64,000 bases of DNA from Clostridia bacterium (GTDB taxonomy: Bacteria; Bacillota; Clostridia; Oscillospirales; CAG-272), in contig JAFTJE010000033.1 in NCBI GenBank assembly GCA_017456545.1, positions 3,793-67,792 of the forward strand, in the 5' to 3' direction. The position numbers and the translations under genes are program-made. Of this stretch, positions 44,252 to 51,600 are shown piece after piece (positions within the stretch are counted from its first letter, which is position 1; every line of letters begins with the position of its first letter). Below the pieces are notes generated by a model. It was given only the letters and a program-made list of their open reading frames with translations, was not told the DNA's origin and did no database searches.

Positions 44252-45000
44252 TTATTGATATGCCCCTCTCTTTTGGAAATTACATATTCAGCGTAATCAA
44301 TATCCTCTTTAACCGTAATTTTAATGTTTTCTCTGCCTGTATCTACAAGCTTAACCTTAAATCCAGCCTTTTCAGCAAGCATGCAATCATCGGTAACCTC
44401 TATATTTTTTTGTCTTGCATTATATGCACTTGCTTTATAAGTTTTTGTTTCGAAGGCTTGTGGTGTCTGTACATTCCATACAAATTCTCTGTCAAGAGTG
44501 CGTTTAACAAGTCCGTTTTCATCAACCCACTTTATAGTGTCAATTGCCCTGCACGCTGCTGATGCCGCATTATATTCAACTGCTTTTTTAAGAACCGACT
44601 CTATAATTTCCTCAGTAACCAAGCACCTTGCCCCGTCATGGAAAATAACATATTTTGTTTTTTCGGAAATATGTCTGAAGCCTCGAAATGCAGAGTTTTG
44701 TCTTGTATCACCACCGACAACAATACATCTTATTTTTTTGAAATCGTTAATTACGATAAGCTCCTTATACTTTTGTAAATCCTCCTTACGGACAACCAAT
44801 ATAATTTCCTTTACGCATTTGGATTTTTCAAAAACAGAAATTGTTCTTTCAGCCACTCCCTTACCACAGACCTGAGCCATCTGTTTATTTTCCAAGCCCT
44901 TGCCAAATCTTGTTGAATTACCTGCACATAATATGATAGCTGATGTATATCCCTGTTTTACTGTATCAAAGGTCTTAGCAATTTTTGAAAATAATCCCAT
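44248..45000 (-). CDS. ispD: 2-C-methyl-D-erythritol 4-phosphate cytidylyltransferase
   Basis: AIILCAGNSTRFG (P-loop-like) and VGGDTRQNS. ATG 45000 sits behind GGGAGG. The 3' end overlaps ispF by 4 nt. Confidence 0.9.
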   Translation of the reverse strand: MGLFSKIAKTFDTVKQGYTSAIILCAGNSTRFGKGLENKQMAQVCGKGVAERTISVFEKSKCVKEIILVVRKEDLQKYKELIVINDFKKIRCIVVGGDTRQNSAFRGFRHISEKTKYVIFHDGARCLVTEEIIESVLKKAVEYNAASAACRAIDTIKWVDENGLVKRTLDREFVWNVQTPQAFETKTYKASAYNARQKNIEVTDDCMLAEKAGFKVKLVDTGRENIKITVKEDIDYAEYVISKREGHINK

Positions 45001-45107
45001 TTTTATACCTCCCGGTAGCAACTGTATATAAATGTATGTCTATAAAACAATTATTTATTTTATCATATAATATTTTAACACCGTTTGTCAATAAATTAGT
45101 ATAAAAA

Positions 45108-45135
45108 AATAAAAAAAGAGCCGAAAAAACGGCTC
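45108..45135 (-). terminator. Rho-independent terminator after the BlaI-like gene
   Basis: The arm gagccg pairs with cggctc, with a T-run on the minus strand. Confidence 0.7.
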
Positions 45136-45239
45136 AAAAATTTAATAATTCCAAAAAACCTATGAATCCTACGGTTTACACATTTGATGAGGTGAGCTAT
45201 ATCACCTACATCAAATCCGAAACTCGCTGTCGAAATTCA

Positions 45240-45617
45240 TCAATACTGTTCCTGAAGCCACTTTAGCATTTCATCAAGCTCATCATTTGGGAGTGTATTG
45301 TTACCGTAAAGCAAATCAAGCATCTTTACAAAAGAGCCACCGTGATATTTATTAAGAAAATCCACAGTAATACCACGAACATAATCTGTTTTTACAGCAT
45401 CAACAAAATAATATCTTTCCTTTCCCCTTTTTTCAGAGTGAATAAAACCTCTATCTTCAAGTCTTGTAAGGAATGAAATAAGAGTAGGTGCCTTCCAGCC
45501 CTTTGCTTTACCGACATTTTCCATAAGATATGCCGTATTGACCGGATAAGTCTTACTGCTCCAAAGGGCTACCATAACATCAAATTCAGCCTCGGGCAAT
45601 TTCTTTGATATGTCCAT
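45240..45617 (-). CDS. BlaI/MecI/CopY-family winged-helix repressor (orphan)
   Basis: LPEAEFDVMVALW...APTLISFLTRLEDRGFI..EKRGKERYYF is typical of the Penicillinase_R family. ATG 45617 is preferred, 7 nt after AAAGGAA. Confidence 0.75.
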   Translation of the reverse strand: MDISKKLPEAEFDVMVALWSSKTYPVNTAYLMENVGKAKGWKAPTLISFLTRLEDRGFIHSEKRGKERYYFVDAVKTDYVRGITVDFLNKYHGGSFVKMLDLLYGNNTLPNDELDEMLKWLQEQY

Positions 45618-45650
45618 TTTCATTTCCTTTCTTTTTTTAGTTGCTCTATT

Positions 45651-45679
45651 ATTATACACTTGTCTAATTTGTTTGTCAA
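45651..45679 (-). promoter_or_regulatory. Consensus sigma-A promoter of the BlaI-like gene
   Basis: On the minus strand: TTGACA, a 17-nt spacer, then TATAAT. Both hexamers are exact. Confidence 0.65.
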
Positions 45680-45701
45680 TAAGAATTTTATATTTTTCGA
45701 C

Positions 45702-45730
45702 AAAAAATTTGCACCGTTAAAAAACGGTGC
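45702..45730 (-). terminator. Rho-independent terminator after the ACP-like gene
   Basis: The arm gcaccg pairs with cggtgc, with a T-run on the minus strand. Confidence 0.7.
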
Positions 45731-45745
45731 GAGATGTGTCCGAAA

Positions 45746-45973
45746 TTAAAATGAGACCTTCTTTGCGGATACTTCAAAAATATCCGTAATATCACGAAGC
45801 TCTACTATTTCTTCATCTTCTATATGTATATCAAATATATTTTCAATACCCATTATTATCTTCATAAGAGTTAGAGAATCCATACCGAGCTCAACAAAGG
45901 TCATTTCTTCTCTCAGCTCCTCTACAGGTATGGAAAGATGTATGGAAATTATACCAAGAATTTTATCAAGCAT
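45746..45973 (-). CDS. Acyl/peptidyl carrier protein-like (75 aa, orphan)
   Basis: ELGMDSLTLMKI matches the phosphopantetheine attachment motif (G-x-D-S-L). The size and acidity fit an ACP. A GGAGG ribosome-binding site is present. Confidence 0.7.
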   Translation of the reverse strand: MLDKILGIISIHLSIPVEELREEMTFVELGMDSLTLMKIIMGIENIFDIHIEDEEIVELRDITDIFEVSAKKVSF

Positions 45974-46007
45974 TTATAGATTCCTCCTATTTTCTCATTC
46001 CTACATT

Positions 46008-46036
46008 ATTATATAACATATTTGTGTATTTTTCAA
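46008..46036 (-). promoter_or_regulatory. Sigma-A promoter of the ACP-like gene
   Basis: On the minus strand: TTGAAA, a 17-nt spacer, then TATAAT. Confidence 0.6.
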
Positions 46037-46044
46037 GTTTTTTA

Positions 46045-46073
46045 TTGACTTTATACTTTCAAATTATTATAAT
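46045..46073 (+). promoter_or_regulatory. Sigma-A promoter of the ROK-like gene, back-to-back with the ACP promoter
   Basis: TTGACT, a 17-nt spacer, then TATAAT. The two -35 boxes are 8 bp apart. Confidence 0.6.
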
Positions 46074-46083
46074 CAAATGGGTG

Positions 46084-46809
46084 ATGAATATGAAACACAA
46101 TGATATGAGAAACAAAAATGCTGTAGCTATTTTAGAATGCGTTAAAGAAAAGGGGTTATCAATTGAAGATATAAAATCCGAAACCGGCCTCAGTCATGTT
46201 ACCGTGAGAAAAATCGGAAATATGCTCTCCGATATGAAATACTTAAAGACATATAATATCATAGGAGATAAATTAGGTAGAAGAAGCCAATATTTTATCC
46301 TGTCTAACAGACCCTTCTCTGTTTATATGTTTGAAGACAAATATTCTTATATGGTAATTGGTATAAATTCCTTTGGCAATGTAATAATACGACATGACTA
46401 CATTAAAAAAATGAGATATACATATGAGGAAAACTTTTGGGAGGCTGTTAAATCAATTACTACACGCCCCGAGTATATTTACTGCCTTAATATATTTGCC
46501 AACTGCTATGACAGCTCCATATCTCTTTTCCCGGAATATATTACAGCAGTACGACTTAAAAAATTCATAGCTGAATATCTATGTCCGACAGACAGAGCTG
46601 TAATAATAGAATTTAACAAGGAATGCTATCTCTCTCTTTACGGTCACATAAACAAAACAAGTGCCACTCCCGAAGAAATACAAAAAATATTCCCCTGTGA
46701 TTATACAGTATCGTTTACGGGAGATCCTGTATTCGGTATGTTTGACGCATTACAATATGCCAACATTAAAGCGATGAAAGCGAATATACTAAATATTAAA
46801 GACCTTTAA
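46084..46809 (+). CDS. HTH protein with a ROK-repressor-like N-terminal module and a truncated, divergent C-terminus
   Basis: SETGLSHVTVRKIGNMLSDMKYLK...GDKLGRRSQYFILS follows the ROK/NagC N-terminal pattern (GLS..TV...GRRp..l.l). No sugar-kinase glycine loops or CxCGxxGC zinc motif are visible. The start is 46084 or 46090. Confidence 0.5.
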   Translation: MNMKHNDMRNKNAVAILECVKEKGLSIEDIKSETGLSHVTVRKIGNMLSDMKYLKTYNIIGDKLGRRSQYFILSNRPFSVYMFEDKYSYMVIGINSFGNVIIRHDYIKKMRYTYEENFWEAVKSITTRPEYIYCLNIFANCYDSSISLFPEYITAVRLKKFIAEYLCPTDRAVIIEFNKECYLSLYGHINKTSATPEEIQKIFPCDYTVSFTGDPVFGMFDALQYANIKAMKANILNIKDL

Positions 46810-46831
46810 TCAATTTATTAAAGGTCTTTTT
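46798..46831 (+). terminator. Rho-independent terminator
   Basis: The arm aaagaccttta pairs with taaaggtcttt, followed by a T-run. Confidence 0.8.
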
Positions 46832-46853
46832 ATTGTATTACAATAAATTTTTA

Positions 46854-46882
46854 TTGACATACAGCTAAGTATATTATATAAT
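46854..46882 (+). promoter_or_regulatory. Consensus sigma-A promoter of the DUF2975-HTH-flavoprotein operon
   Basis: TTGACA, a 17-nt spacer, then TATAAT. Both hexamers are exact. Confidence 0.65.
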
Positions 46883-46905
46883 ATAACAAAAAGGAGGTAA
46901 ATTAT

Positions 46906-47367
46906 ATGAATAAAAAATTATCAATACTGATTACATTTGTACTTATATTACTCGTAATGAGCAGCACAGCCATGTTTATCTTTTGGTTACCGGATGTGGC
47001 AATATATATAGGAGGTTTTATAAACAAAAATTACTCTATCATATATATTTTATCCTCTGTTATTTATACACTAACAGTAGCAATTTTTATAACAGGCTCA
47101 TATTTTATTTACGCTATATATAAGGATATAATTTTTGATAAAAAAACATCTACTGTCCTTACTACAATAGGCATAATGCTGCTTTTGAATTGCTCTGTTC
47201 TTATAGCTTCAAGCATCTGGATACTTTCTATAGGTGAAAGCTTATTATCTCCTGCTCTTATTTTTGTCTCTGCTCTTGGATATACTGTGTCCTCAGTATT
47301 ATTAATTCTTTCAAGCTATGTTAAAAAAGCTACTGAATTAAAGGAGGAGGTAGATCTTACTCTATGA
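46906..47367 (+). CDS. DUF2975-type (YoaS-like) four-TM membrane protein
   Basis: A ~150-aa protein with four hydrophobic segments and the C-terminal tail LKEEVDLTL typical of this family. A GGAGG ribosome-binding site is present. Confidence 0.65.
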   Translation: MNKKLSILITFVLILLVMSSTAMFIFWLPDVAIYIGGFINKNYSIIYILSSVIYTLTVAIFITGSYFIYAIYKDIIFDKKTSTVLTTIGIMLLLNCSVLIASSIWILSIGESLLSPALIFVSALGYTVSSVLLILSSYVKKATELKEEVDLTL

Positions 47368-47579
47368 TAATAATAAATATAGATGTAATGCTTGCAAAAA
47401 GAAAAATGTCCGTAGGTGAGCTATCAGAAAAGGTCGGTTTCACAATGGCAAATGTTTCTCTGCTTAAAAACGGTAAAATAAAAGCATTTAAGATATCTAC
47501 TCTTGATAAGCTATGTGAGGTTCTTAAATGTCAGCCCGGAGATCTACTTGAATATGTAGACGGTGAGGATAATGAATAA
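47364..47579 (+). CDS. YozG-type XRE-family HTH regulator (71 aa)
   Basis: DVMLAKRKMSVGELSEKVGFTMANVSLLKNGKIKAFKISTLDKLCEVLKCQPGDLLEY. Its start overlaps the upstream stop as ATGA. Confidence 0.8.
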   Translation: MIIINIDVMLAKRKMSVGELSEKVGFTMANVSLLKNGKIKAFKISTLDKLCEVLKCQPGDLLEYVDGEDNE

Positions 47580-48627
47580 GCATTATAATATTGTAATAAT
47601 AGGTGCCGGTCCCTCCGGATGTATATTTGCTTCAGAGCTATATAAGAGTAATAAAAATTATTCCATAGCACTTATTGACGGACAAACAGAGGAAAATAAA
47701 AAGCCCTGTGGTGGTCTTCTTGCTCCCGATGCCCAAAAGGAGCTTACAAAGCTGAATCTCACTCTCCCCAAATATATATTGACCGACCCTCAAATATTTG
47801 AGGTTGAAACAATAGACTTAAAAAGCCGTATCAAAAAATATTATCAAAGACATTATCTGAATATGGACAGATACAAATTTGATAAATGGCTTCTCTCCTT
47901 GATTCCGGAGGGAGTTGATGTAATCAATGACAGATGTATCTATATTAGAAAAAGTGAATCAATTTATAATTTGAAGCTGAAGAACGGTGTTGAAATATCC
48001 TGTGATTATATTGTCGGTGCAGATGGTGGAAGCTCAATAGTCAGAAGAACACTTTTCCCTGCTCTGACCTACAGGTATACCTCCATACAAGAATGGTTCA
48101 AATGTGATAAGGGTTTATTTCCATACTATTCCTGTATATTTGACCCAAATACAAGTGACAGCTGCTCCTGGACTATATTCAAGGATGATTACATAATATA
48201 CGGCGGTGCCTTCAAAACATTGGACTGTAAAACAAGGTACGAAGAACAGAAAAAAATGGTCGAAGAGTATATTGGTTATAAATTCGGTAAGCCTGAAAGA
48301 ACTGAGGCATGTATGCTTTCAAGTCCACGGAAATGGAAGGATTTTTTGTGTGGAAGGGAAAATGCCTATTTAATCGGTGAAGCCGCAGGATTTATAAGCT
48401 CCAGCTCCTTTGAAGGAATCAGCTCTGCTCTTGCAAGCGGTAAAATGCTATCATTGGCATTTATAAACAGTAAAAAAAGTAAAAATATATTGAAGCTATA
48501 TAAAAAATATTCTTTTAAGCTCAGAATCAAATTATATTTGAAAACCTTAAAAAGAAAAATACTGTGTTCTCCCTTTTTAAGATTTATAATTATGAAATCC
48601 GGTATCAAAAGTATAAAAAAATATTAA
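47572..48627 (+). CDS. FAD-dependent oxidoreductase, geranylgeranyl-reductase-like
   Basis: IVIIGAGPSGC (dinucleotide fold), KPCGGLL, VGADGGSSIVRR, LIGEAAGFISSSSFEGISSALASG, and a Lys-rich amphipathic C-tail. Its start overlaps the yozG-like stop. Confidence 0.7.
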   Translation: MNKHYNIVIIGAGPSGCIFASELYKSNKNYSIALIDGQTEENKKPCGGLLAPDAQKELTKLNLTLPKYILTDPQIFEVETIDLKSRIKKYYQRHYLNMDRYKFDKWLLSLIPEGVDVINDRCIYIRKSESIYNLKLKNGVEISCDYIVGADGGSSIVRRTLFPALTYRYTSIQEWFKCDKGLFPYYSCIFDPNTSDSCSWTIFKDDYIIYGGAFKTLDCKTRYEEQKKMVEEYIGYKFGKPERTEACMLSSPRKWKDFLCGRENAYLIGEAAGFISSSSFEGISSALASGKMLSLAFINSKKSKNILKLYKKYSFKLRIKLYLKTLKRKILCSPFLRFIIMKSGIKSIKKY

Positions 48628-48666
48628 TAAAAACTGACTGTACCTCATTGTACAGTCAGTTTTTTG
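48628..48666. terminator. Bidirectional terminator (flavoprotein gene / polC convergent)
   Basis: The arm aaactgactgtac pairs with gtacagtcagttt. Confidence 0.8.
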
Positions 48667-48675
48667 CTTATATTA

Positions 48676-51600
48676 TCAGAACATAGATATCTGATTAGTG
48701 GCAGACATATTACCGAAAACCCCGTTATCCTGTAAAAGCTGCATTACAGTTTTCGAGAGGGAGGTTTTTTGATGGAAATCCTCTATTGAGAATACCTCTC
48801 CACTGTCACGGGCCTCTGCAATCTTTTCTGCTGCCGTGTCACCGACACCTGCGATAGATGAGAAAGGAAGCCTTATTTTACCGTCCTCGGGTAAAAACTT
48901 AAATGCGTCTGATTTGTAAAAATCAACAGGTAAAAATTCAATATTTCTTGCAAGGCATTCATAAGCTAACTGAAGGGCAACAACCATTTCCTTTTCCTTC
49001 TGTGTTGCATCCATACCCTTCTTTTCTATTTCTTCAAGCCTATCAAGAATACCACGCTTACCTCTTGATACCATGGATGCCTCAAAGCCTCCGGGTGCAA
49101 CCGTAAGATATGCAGCGTAAAACTCCATAGGATAATAGATTTTATACCATCCAAGACGGATAGCGGATATGTCGTATGCAACAGCGTGTGCCTTTGGAAA
49201 CATATATTTGATTTTTTTACAGGAGCTAATATACCATTCGGGCACATTATTTGCCTTCATAGCCTCCTCGTACTCGGGCTTAACTCCCTTGCCCTTACGC
49301 ACATCCTCCATTATCTTGAACGCCATACTCTTATCAAGGCCCTTATAAATGAGGTAAATCATAATACTGTCTCGTGTTCCCACAACCTCGGAAATAGTAC
49401 ATGTACCCTTCTTTATAAGATCCTGTGCGTTACCGAGCCATACATCCGTACCGTGTGAAAGTCCGGATATCTGCAGTAAATCCGAGAAATTCTTTGGTTT
49501 CGAATCCTCAAGCATCTGCTGTACGAACCTTGTGCCAAGCTCGGGTAATCCGTATGTACCTACAGTGCATTTAAGATCCTTAAGTAGATCCTTAGACCCA
49601 AGTGGCTCTGTACTTAACAAAAGCTCATAGACCTTTTTGTCATTCATCGGAACATCAAGTACAGATGTACCTGTATATGTTTCAAGCATTTTATACTTTG
49701 TTGGAATATCATGTCCTAACTCATCAAGCTTAAGAAGTGTATCATGAAGATACTCAAAGGTAAAATGAGTGGTTATAATGTCAGATGTAGCATCGTCTGC
49801 AGGGTGCTGTACGGGACAAAAATCATAAATCTCGTTTTCCTTAGGTACAACCACTATTCCTCCCGGGTGCTGTCCGGTAGTTCTCTTTACACCTGTGCAA
49901 AGCTCTACAAGTCTTGCAACCTCTGCCTTATTAACTGTTATCTTATGCTCATCCATATAGTTGGCAATATAACCATAGGCAGTTTTGGGTGCTATTGTAC
50001 CGATTGTTCCTGCTCTGAAAACATTTTCAGCACCGAAAAGATCCTCTGTATATTTATGGACCCTACCCTGTACATCTCCTGAAAAGTTAAGGTCTATATC
50101 AGGAGATTTATCTCCCTTAAAGCCAAGGAAGGTTTCAAATGGGATATCGTGACCCTCATTCAGCATTTTTTTACCACAGTGAGGACAGCTTTTATCCGGT
50201 AGGTCAAAGCCCGAGCCTACACTACCGTCAGTAATAAATTCGCTATATTTACATTTGGGACAAACATAATGAGGCTGAAGGGGATTAACCTCCGATATAC
50301 CTGCCATAGTGGCAACAAAGGACGAGCCTACCGAGCCTCGGGAGCCTACAAGATAACCCTGACTTTCGCTGTAATAAACGAGCTTCTGTGCTATCATATA
50401 TAAAACAGCAAATCCGTTTTTTATTATAGAAGTAAGCTCTTTTTCAAGCCTTTCCTTTACTATATCGGGAATTACACCCCGGAAGCCGTACATATTCATA
50501 GCTCTGTCCCAGCACATTTTCTGAAGATCCTCCTCTGCACCCTCCATCTTAGGTGTGAAGGTACCCTTCGGGAAGGGTCTTATATCCTCATAATCGATCA
50601 TATCAGCTATTTTATTTGTGTTGGTAACAACAACCTCATATGCCTTTTCCTTGCCTAAATATTCAAATTCGGCAAGCATCTCCTCTGTTGTTCTGAAATA
50701 TAGACCGGTATCGCTGTCTGCATCTGCAAATTTCTGTCCTGCAAGAAGAATTTTTCTGCAAATTTCATCCTCTTTATTGATAAAATGTGCATCACAGGTT
50801 GCAACAACCGGCTTACCTAACTTTTCTCCAAGCTCTATAATTCTTTTGTTAAAGTTTTTAAGGTCCTCAACAGTTGCATCTCCCTTTCGTACCATAAACA
50901 TATTGTTACATAGGGGTTGAATTTCAAGATAATCATAAAAATCTGCTATTTCCTCTATTTCGGTTTCACTTTTTCCGTCAACTATAGCCTGAAATAGCTC
51001 TCCTGCCTCACAGGCAGAACCTATTATTAGTCCTTCACGAAGCTCCATAAGCTCTGTTTTAAGAACTCTCGGGTGCTTCTTGTAATATTTCAAAAATCCG
51101 TTAGAAATAAGCTTGTATAAATTCTTAAGGCCTATTCTGTTCTTAACGAGAATTATCTGATGATATGAATTAAGCTTCAAAGGATCTGTATTGTTTCTTA
51201 TTTGGTTTACCATGGAATCAATATCATAAATTCCCTCAGCACGAAGCTTATCAAACATACACACAAGGACCTTACCAAGCATTTCTGCATCATTAAAGGC
51301 TCTATGATGCTCAAATTCTCCTAATTTGAAATATTTAACAATGATATCAAGCTTATGTCTTTTAAGATCAGTATTTACATATCTTGATAAAGCAAGAGTA
51401 TCAAGGTAAGAATAATTAAACTCTATACCGAGCTTATTGCATGCCTGTCTTATAAATCCTGTATCGAAGGTTGCATTATGGGCAACTAACATCCTGTCAC
51501 CCACAAATGCAAGGAATTCAGGCAGAACCTTATCTATAGTTCTTGCATCTCTTACCATATCATCGGTAATTCCTGTAATCTCAACAATGTTCTGTGGTAT

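Follow-up and report, generated by a model that had tools for sequence, protein, structure and literature searches.

A YoaS-YozG-type gene pair in one operon with a CbrA-family flavoprotein gene in Clostridia: a putative autorepressed switch for a carrier-lipid reductase

We studied a three-gene operon in a 64,000-nucleotide (nt) stretch of DNA from a Clostridia bacterium (contig JAFTJE010000033.1, assembly GCA_017456545.1); this whole stretch is called the window, and all plain coordinates are window positions. The operon encodes a YoaS-like DUF2975 membrane protein, a small YozG-like helix-turn-helix (HTH) protein and a flavin adenine dinucleotide (FAD)-dependent reductase assigned to the CbrA/YidS family. 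The reading we lean towards, with moderate confidence, is that the YoaS-YozG pair forms an autorepressed switch which gates a carrier-lipid reductase. It draws on the family membership of the enzyme, on the recurrence of the overlapping genes in other species, and on a palindrome held at a fixed distance from the promoter (see below).

Operon anatomy and identity of the flavoprotein

Three overlapping open reading frames (ORFs) between one promoter and one terminator constitute a single operon, with these features:

46906-47367, plus strand: DUF2975 gene, YoaS-like membrane protein of 153 amino acids (Pfam PF11188)
47364-47579, plus strand: HTH_26 gene, YozG-like protein of the Cro/C1 type, 71 amino acids (Pfam PF13443), putative autorepressor
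47572-48627, plus strand: CbrA/YidS-family FAD-dependent reductase gene, 351 amino acids (NF008519)
46854-46859 (TTGACA) and 46877-46882 (TATAAT), plus strand: sigma-70-type promoter with a 17-nt spacer, 12/12 match
46890-46897, plus strand: Shine-Dalgarno-like AAAGGAGG, 8 nt 5' of the first ATG, read from the sequence
46798-46829, plus strand: terminator-like hairpin that ends the upstream gene and bounds the operon on its 5' side (stem of 13 pairs, then a T-run)
48629-48664, both strands: bidirectional intrinsic terminator that apparently serves the operon and the convergent polC gene alike (stem of 15 pairs, a T-run on either strand)

Within the ORF reading of the window, the DUF2975 and HTH genes overlap in ATGA (47364-47367), and the HTH and flavoprotein genes in the 8 nt ATGAATAA (47572-47579). 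The N-termini of homologues favored ATG 47572 as the flavoprotein start; an alternative in-frame GTG lies at 47563. A promoter scan returned TTGACA-17-TATAAT as the sole 12/12 match and the best in the scanned region, and the sigma-70-type promoter is also conserved in related loci. Terminator-like hairpins were found by a hairpin scan at 46798-46829 and 48629-48664 alone, none of them within the operon. No Rfam family matched in 45000-49000, and to that extent the region contains neither a riboswitch nor a leader RNA. An earlier reading made from the letters alone (the sequence-only reading) had described three overlapping ORFs behind an exact-consensus promoter and before one terminator; the ORFs, overlaps, 12/12 promoter and hairpins were all found as claimed.

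The flavoprotein matched NCBIfam NF008519 (PRK11445, 'FAD-binding protein'), an equivalog-type model with a curated cutoff of 303, at 405.5 bits over residues 3-350 of 351. The next best NCBIfam match was TIGR02032 (GG-red-SF) with 89 bits, below its cutoff of 158.8; by these scores the flavoprotein is related to the TIGR02032 geranylgeranyl reductases (GGRs) at the superfamily level only. Weaker NCBIfam matches were MenJ, BchP/ChlP and DGGGPL reductase, and Pfam gave only generic FAD-fold matches (FAD_binding_3, Trp_halogenase). A tblastn search of annotated records returned Escherichia coli chromosomal copies that cover 95% of the query at 42% identity, including one annotated 'cbrA: colicin M resistance protein' within an ibpAB-yidQ-yidR-cbrA-dgoD region. 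Pairwise alignment of flavoprotein residues 3-350 with residues 2-351 of E. coli CbrA was collinear (42% identity, E 2e-96), and the two proteins have in common GxGPxG, KPCGGLLAPDAQ, VGADG, YSCIFD, LIGEAAGFIS..EGIS and basic C-terminal helices. The motifs picked out in the sequence-only reading, GAGPSGC (residues 11-17), PCGG (45-48) and GEAAGF..FEGIS (269-284), are all present. The CbrA family is compact, comprising 299 clusters at 50% identity (E <= 1e-30), and judged from its sequence the flavoprotein is a member of this CbrA/YidS family.

An AlphaFold2 (AF2) model of the flavoprotein was built from 27 homologues, with a predicted local distance difference test (pLDDT) value of 89.3 and a predicted template-modelling score (pTM) of 0.90. 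Its best solved folds in Foldseek were archaeal GGRs (3oz2, 3atq/4opX; E ~3e-21, template-modelling (TM) scores 0.76-0.81); AbsH3, halogenases, tetracycline destructases and aromatic monooxygenases followed at TM 0.6-0.7. The CbrA-family profile searched against PDB sequences also had 3oz2 as best match (E 1.3e-9), with the PltA halogenase second-best, and the single flavoprotein sequence gave marginal matches only. The cysteine of PCGG (C46) is invariant in the family and corresponds, in the alignment with 3oz2, to the cysteine of RCGE; this xCGG cysteine is a functionally important one in GGRs. An Fe-S or disulfide role for several conserved cysteines was set aside, as not all of them are kept in E. 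coli CbrA. The proposal that the flavoprotein is GGR-like thus held in the profile searches, which made it a member of NF008519, as well as in the structural comparison, where GGR folds outscored monooxygenases and no clustering with aromatic hydroxylases was seen.

The FAD_binding_3 and Trp_halogenase matches and the rank of PltA would also suit an oxygen-dependent enzyme of this fold class, either a monooxygenase or a halogenase. We find this hardly credible, because GGRs were the best matches by both sequence and fold, the xCGG cysteine is invariant, the protein falls in the CbrA family, and its hosts, being gut Clostridia, are presumably anaerobes as judged from taxonomy.

The C-terminus, which the sequence-only reading took for a Lys-rich amphipathic tail suggestive of membrane association, is indeed Lys-rich and moderately amphipathic, with a net charge of +18 in the last 52 residues. 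The idea of an appended membrane tail did not survive, however: the segment is predicted by AF2 to be helical and is conserved throughout the family, also in E. coli CbrA. Contact between this segment and the anionic head groups of lipids is conceivable.

E. coli CbrA has been described as resembling geranylgeranyl reductases; when overproduced, it is reported to saturate the alpha-isoprene unit in undecaprenyl phosphate (C55-P) and in lipids I and II, a change that blocks hydrolysis by colicin M (PMC8469651, a review crediting the activity to Helbig 2012 and Barreteau 2020). Expression of the E. coli gene is under activation by CreBC, and colicin M acts as an inducer (PMC3599342). By homology, the flavoprotein of the window is a probable undecaprenyl-phosphate alpha-isoprene reductase, and the earlier suggestion of a role in saturating an isoprenoid chain is well founded in view of the activity reported for CbrA.

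Conservation of the operon, its operators and the regulatory pair

Relatives of the flavoprotein (50-65% identity) were collected by a scan with one genome per species, which yielded 80 loci. The DUF2975-HTH pair was immediately upstream of the cbrA homologue in 19 of these 80 species-level loci, a frequency that describes the closest relatives of the query and is not a census. The hosts of the 19 were gut Oscillospiraceae, Faecousia, Flemingiibacterium and unclassified Clostridia metagenome-assembled genomes. The 4-nt overlap between the DUF2975 and HTH genes was kept in all 19, and the overlap between the HTH gene and cbrA measured 8, 11, 14, 17 or 20 nt in 20/20 loci, the window counted. 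On a neighbor-joining tree of the flavoproteins (a single-gene distance tree without support values), the three-gene state was scattered on deep branches with non-operon clades nested within, a pattern consistent with an old arrangement that was lost several times. A sister species, whose DUF2975 protein is 88% identical, was fully syntenic with the window. The arrangement therefore recurs in other genomes, as the sequence-only reading had asked to be checked, and its description of the three genes as one operon extends to a conserved one in which the overlaps are always kept.

Upstream of the genes, two putative operator sites were recognized:

46826-46850: putative operator O1, a 25-base-pair (bp) palindrome 6 nt 5' of the -35 hexamer, recognized by conservation
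46851-46867, plus strand: putative second operator O2 (TTATTG ACATA CAGCTA), its left half TTATTG overlapping the -35 hexamer

The core of O1, TTATTGTATTACAATAA, reads TTATTGTA-T-TACAATAA (46830-46846), and its pattern occurs once in the 64-kb window against 0.09 occurrences expected by chance. All 17 three-gene loci with upstream DNA (17/17) have the palindrome exactly 6 nt 5' of the -35, with the consensus AAATTTATCGTAwTACGATAAATTT, and this spacing is fixed although the proteins have diverged to ~50-64% identity. The palindrome that the sequence-only reading had singled out (46829-46847) as a possible target of the HTH protein is, then, a conserved element. The left half of O2 was perfect in 14 of the 19 sites listed for three-gene loci, and its right half was weaker. 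A perfect-consensus promoter with a palindrome abutting or overlapping its -35 would fit repression better than activation.

The HTH protein matched HTH_26 (PF13443) with 80.1 bits against a cutoff of 22 (E 1e-22), residues 5-66 of 71 aligning with positions 1-62 of the 63-position profile. Because this domain spans nearly the whole chain, the protein is, on its Pfam match, a bare DNA-binding domain without a sensor domain; it is very highly conserved among the three-gene loci. The membrane protein of the window matched DUF2975 (PF11188) marginally (27.2 bits, gathering cutoff 27), and all 15 orthologues scanned from three-gene loci (15/15) also matched it, the best with E 4e-15. Four long helices were indicated by hydropathy and by a shallow, low-confidence AF2 model (pLDDT 68.5) used for the helix count only, and the positive-inside rule would place both termini, including the C-terminal tail, in the cytoplasm. 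The most conserved part of the protein is its extreme C-terminus, YVxRAAxLKEExDxTL (YVKKATELKEEVDLTL in the window), where K146, E147, E148, T152 and L153 are invariant in 15 orthologues otherwise only 28-39% identical. Since the HTH protein has no sensor domain of its own, we hypothesize that the two proteins make contact through this tail, the obvious candidate. The codons for LKEE (47341-47349) read AAGGAGGAG, a Shine-Dalgarno-like sequence 14 nt 5' of the overlapping HTH start. Conservation of LKEE may thus come in part from the ribosome-binding site of the HTH gene.

Three loci with cbrA and without the pair, L065 (5873-5914), L073 (229-270) and L004 (2724-2765), have operator and promoter directly 5' of cbrA, and in L065 two perfect operator sites precede the gene. 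Such loci would have their YozG encoded in trans or would have lost the pair recently. In our view the operator kept there is the strongest indication of cbrA being a regulated target, not a passenger.

Clustering of all neighboring ORFs revealed no other recurrent partner common to more than 7 of the 80 loci. Seven loci without the DUF2975-HTH pair had a PlsC-type acyltransferase gene (PF01553) directly 5' of the cbrA homologue, at a gap of -4 to +3 nt, and in 4/7 a GH43 glycosidase gene came next:

L020 (5150-5983), L029, L031, L034, L036, L047 and L056: PlsC-cbrA loci

Other YoaS-YozG modules, their cargo and the isoprenoid neighborhood

Metagenome contigs were scanned for the pattern TTATYG-N5-CRATAAA-N6-TTGACA, which gave at least 120 stretches (L081-L200); as this sample was selected by the operator pattern, counts made in it are not population frequencies. 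A recognizable YozG-like HTH gene was found 530-1300 nt downstream of the pattern in 85 of the at least 120 listed stretches, usually behind a DUF2975-like ORF, and none of these 85 carried a cbrA homologue. Because of these two results the operator-promoter design is, as far as the sequences tell, generic for YoaS-YozG modules. Inverted repeats upstream of YoaS-YozG operons have been reported as putative autoregulatory operators in a 2026 preprint, which agrees with this result; apart from the preprint, a 2009 toxin-antitoxin survey was the sole useful literature found on yozG. The generic consensus consists of two tandem sites 21 bp apart, ATTTATCGAAAAACGATAAAAATTTATTGACAAACGATAA, of which the second holds the -35 hexamer (TTATTGACAnnCGATAA); the right half of O2 matched in at least four of six positions in 81 of the 118 generic modules listed, against a background of 6%. 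A tandem operator with an embedded -35 would explain why TTAT precedes a perfect TTGACA in such promoters.

The genes behind the pair were surveyed in the 64 listed modules with at least 600 nt past the HTH gene. A co-directional ORF lay within ~150 nt of the HTH gene in 59 of the 64. In the sequence-only reading a third gene coupled to such a pair had been deemed unusual; the survey it called for shows the opposite, and what is special is cbrA as cargo. Among the third genes 35 belonged to one family, DUF4153 membrane proteins of 400-690 amino acids (E 2.5e-98; e.g., L124, L101 and L175), two were LtaS-like with a sulfatase domain and two YpsA-like, and several singletons had lipoprotein-type signal peptides or transmembrane segments as read from their sequences.

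HTH proteins associated with a GTAwTAC operator centre form a sequence variant of their own, which also occurs with other cargo or none. Three close relatives of the cbrA-linked pair with a GTAwTAC-type centre were seen: in L159 (10683-12900) the pair is followed by a terminator and has no cargo, and in L115 and L126 the third gene encodes a small lipoprotein. Cargo is thus exchangeable even within the cbrA-linked subfamily.

A further explanation is that the pair is a toxin-antitoxin-like or addiction module, made of a membrane toxin and an Xre antitoxin, in which the downstream gene would play no part. HTH proteins of the Xre type are frequent among antitoxins, and the 2009 toxin-antitoxin survey found YoaS-like proteins as recurrent Xre partners (PMC2701414); the same survey, however, asterisks them among metabolic or transporter partners ('a membrane protein, likely permease') and not as toxins. 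Given also that the modules lie in chromosomal operons with large cargo, DUF4153 in 35 of the 64 listed, and that gene order and operator are vertically conserved, we consider an addiction module very improbable.

The window operon has isoprenoid genes on both sides, from which the sequence-only reading drew a link with isoprenoids. Beyond polC lie the genes for IspG, RseP, Dxr, CdsA, UppS, Frr and PyrH, and uppS, dxr and ispG are part of the housekeeping cluster pyrH-frr-uppS-cdsA-dxr-rseP-ispG-polC. In Firmicutes this pyrH...ispG cluster typically ends at polC. The IspD and IspF genes are 1.9 kb upstream on the other strand, past three unrelated genes:

45240-45659, minus strand: first gene between ispD and the operon
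45746-45973, minus strand: second gene between ispD and the operon
46024-46809, plus strand: third gene between ispD and the operon

A similar adjacency was found in the sister species and in only 2/80 loci (L002 adjoins polC; L039 has ispDF nearby, on the other side). It is a property of the genus, not of the operon, and with the genes on the polC side belonging to a housekeeping cluster, the neighborhood was rejected as functional evidence. The three intervening genes include one for a BlaI/MecI/CopY-type repressor with no BlaR1-like sensor gene adjoining, an orphan gene for a 75-amino-acid acyl-carrier-protein-like product, and one for a 261-amino-acid protein with an HTH-like N-terminus and no Pfam match.

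The proposed switch and its comparison with known systems

We propose that a dimer of the YozG-type HTH protein binds the TTATYG-N5-CRATAA palindrome (O1) 6 nt 5' of the -35, and probably also the weaker O2 whose left half overlaps the -35, and that this occupancy would hold an otherwise perfect-consensus promoter shut. The DUF2975 protein would supply the signal input that the repressor lacks, probably through its invariant cytoplasmic tail, responding to some state of the membrane or of the cell-wall lipid cycle; repression would then be relieved and all three proteins made from one coupled message. The CbrA homologue would saturate the alpha-isoprene unit in undecaprenyl phosphate and in lipids I and II; a carrier lipid altered in this manner would be a poorer target for agents attacking that part of lipid II.

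Several points weigh against this proposal, and some of them bear on how far cbrA belongs to the switch at all. About three quarters of the cbrA homologues examined are without the DUF2975-HTH pair, and cbrA was the third gene in 0 of the 64 listed modules with enough downstream DNA; on these counts neither cbrA nor the pair needs the other, although the two samples were selective in the ways given above, the first for closeness to the query and the second for the operator. In the window O2 is a degenerate site, its right half matching at 3/6 positions, and the O1 centre, ~51 nt 5' of the predicted transcription start, is near -51, a position also suited to an activator. The pair might be an autonomous self-regulating module with a function of its own, and cbrA, inserted behind it in an ancestor, a read-through passenger functionally unconnected with it. 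The far greater abundance of the pair without cbrA in the sampled modules, the many cbrA genes without the pair, and the relatives in the HTH subfamily with small lipoproteins (L115, L126) or no cargo (L159) would all suit a passenger. We nevertheless regard it as quite unlikely, since the HTH/cbrA overlap is kept in 20/20 loci across flavoproteins only ~50% identical and three loci without the pair keep operator and promoter directly before cbrA; the kept overlaps and these operators argue that selection maintains control of cbrA.

Other adverse points concern the substrate. The activity of CbrA is known from overproduction in E. coli, and 42% identity leaves room for a different substrate or regiospecificity. 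In addition, the PlsC-type acyltransferase, the second recurrent partner of cbrA, hints in its 7 loci at a glycerolipid connection which the proposed switch leaves unexplained. Thus the regulation may be as proposed and the flavoprotein may reduce another lipid, candidates being the chain of a different polyprenyl or of a quinone and, in glycerolipids, an unsaturated acyl chain. The limited identity to E. coli CbrA, the translational coupling of PlsC upstream of cbrA, and the varied substrates of the GGR family, with weak matches here to MenJ, BchP/ChlP and DGGGPL reductase, speak for such a substrate. A score of 405 against a cutoff of 303 on an equivalog-type model, the full-length alignment with CbrA with all family motifs conserved, and the compactness of the family (299 clusters) speak against it, and we judge it rather unlikely.

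Each element is known from earlier work: CbrA, the fold of the geranylgeranyl reductases, and YoaS-YozG with inverted repeats upstream. Our literature search turned up no account of a YoaS-YozG operon whose cargo is a cbrA homologue, none of CbrA homologues from gut anaerobes of the Gram-positive type, and none of a tandem operator embedding the -35. DUF2975-HTH_26 pairs are very common in Firmicutes and are without an assigned function, so a cargo from a family whose biochemistry is published (it modifies the carrier lipid of peptidoglycan) is a first functional lead on the uncharacterised pair and comes with testable predictions. Carrier-lipid reductases that are CbrA-type by family occur in gut anaerobes (Oscillospiraceae and related Clostridia), and in 19/80 loci they appear to be under dedicated transcriptional control, which would bear on the tolerance of commensals to bacteriocins and antibiotics attacking lipid II. 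A broader proposal, speculative and rather doubtful though possible, is that YoaS-YozG is a widespread sensor-repressor system for the envelope or carrier-lipid cycle. The four-helix DUF2975 protein would sense how the membrane or the pool of undecaprenyl phosphate and lipid II stands, its invariant cytoplasmic tail would release YozG from tandem operators embedding the -35, the interchangeable cargo (CbrA, DUF4153, LtaS-like proteins, small lipoproteins) would consist of envelope-remodelling effectors, and the cbrA version would provide inducible resistance to lipid II-targeting agents in gut Clostridia.

Among known systems, the Bacillus subtilis-type YoaS-YozG module is like the window operon in its two Pfam families, gene order and upstream inverted repeat; in the three-gene loci the DUF2975 gene is directly followed by the HTH gene in 19/19 and the palindrome lies upstream in 17/17 assessable cases. 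It differs in that modules sampled from gut metagenomes mostly have DUF4153, and never cbrA, as the third gene. The operator centre also differs, being GTAwTAC in cbrA-linked modules versus GAAAAAC, together with an HTH variant of their own, a difference confounded by shared ancestry. BlaI/BlaR1 and MecI/MecR1 offer a functional analogy only: there too a small repressor free of a ligand domain and its co-transcribed membrane partner control a gene for cell-wall-related resistance, but the protein families are unrelated and no protease domain is evident in DUF2975.

E. coli CbrA belongs to the same NF008519 family as the window flavoprotein, with 42% identity over the full length and common motifs, and both genes are described here or elsewhere as being under inducible control, putatively so in the window. 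E. coli cbrA, however, is separately transcribed, activated by CreBC and adjacent to yidR and dgoD, whereas the window gene, from an anaerobe of the Gram-positive type, comes last of three in a YoaS-YozG operon and the activity of its product is predicted. The archaeal GGRs, Thermoplasma Ta0516 (3oz2) and the Sulfolobus GGR (3atq/4opX), provide the best folds, and their xCGG cysteine, W-x-(F/I)-x-K and G(D/E)AAG motifs align with those of the window protein. Identity with them is only 16-17%, and the window protein is ~50-100 residues shorter and below the TIGR02032 cutoff; its substrate would presumably be a bacterial carrier lipid, in contrast to the archaeal membrane lipids of those enzymes.

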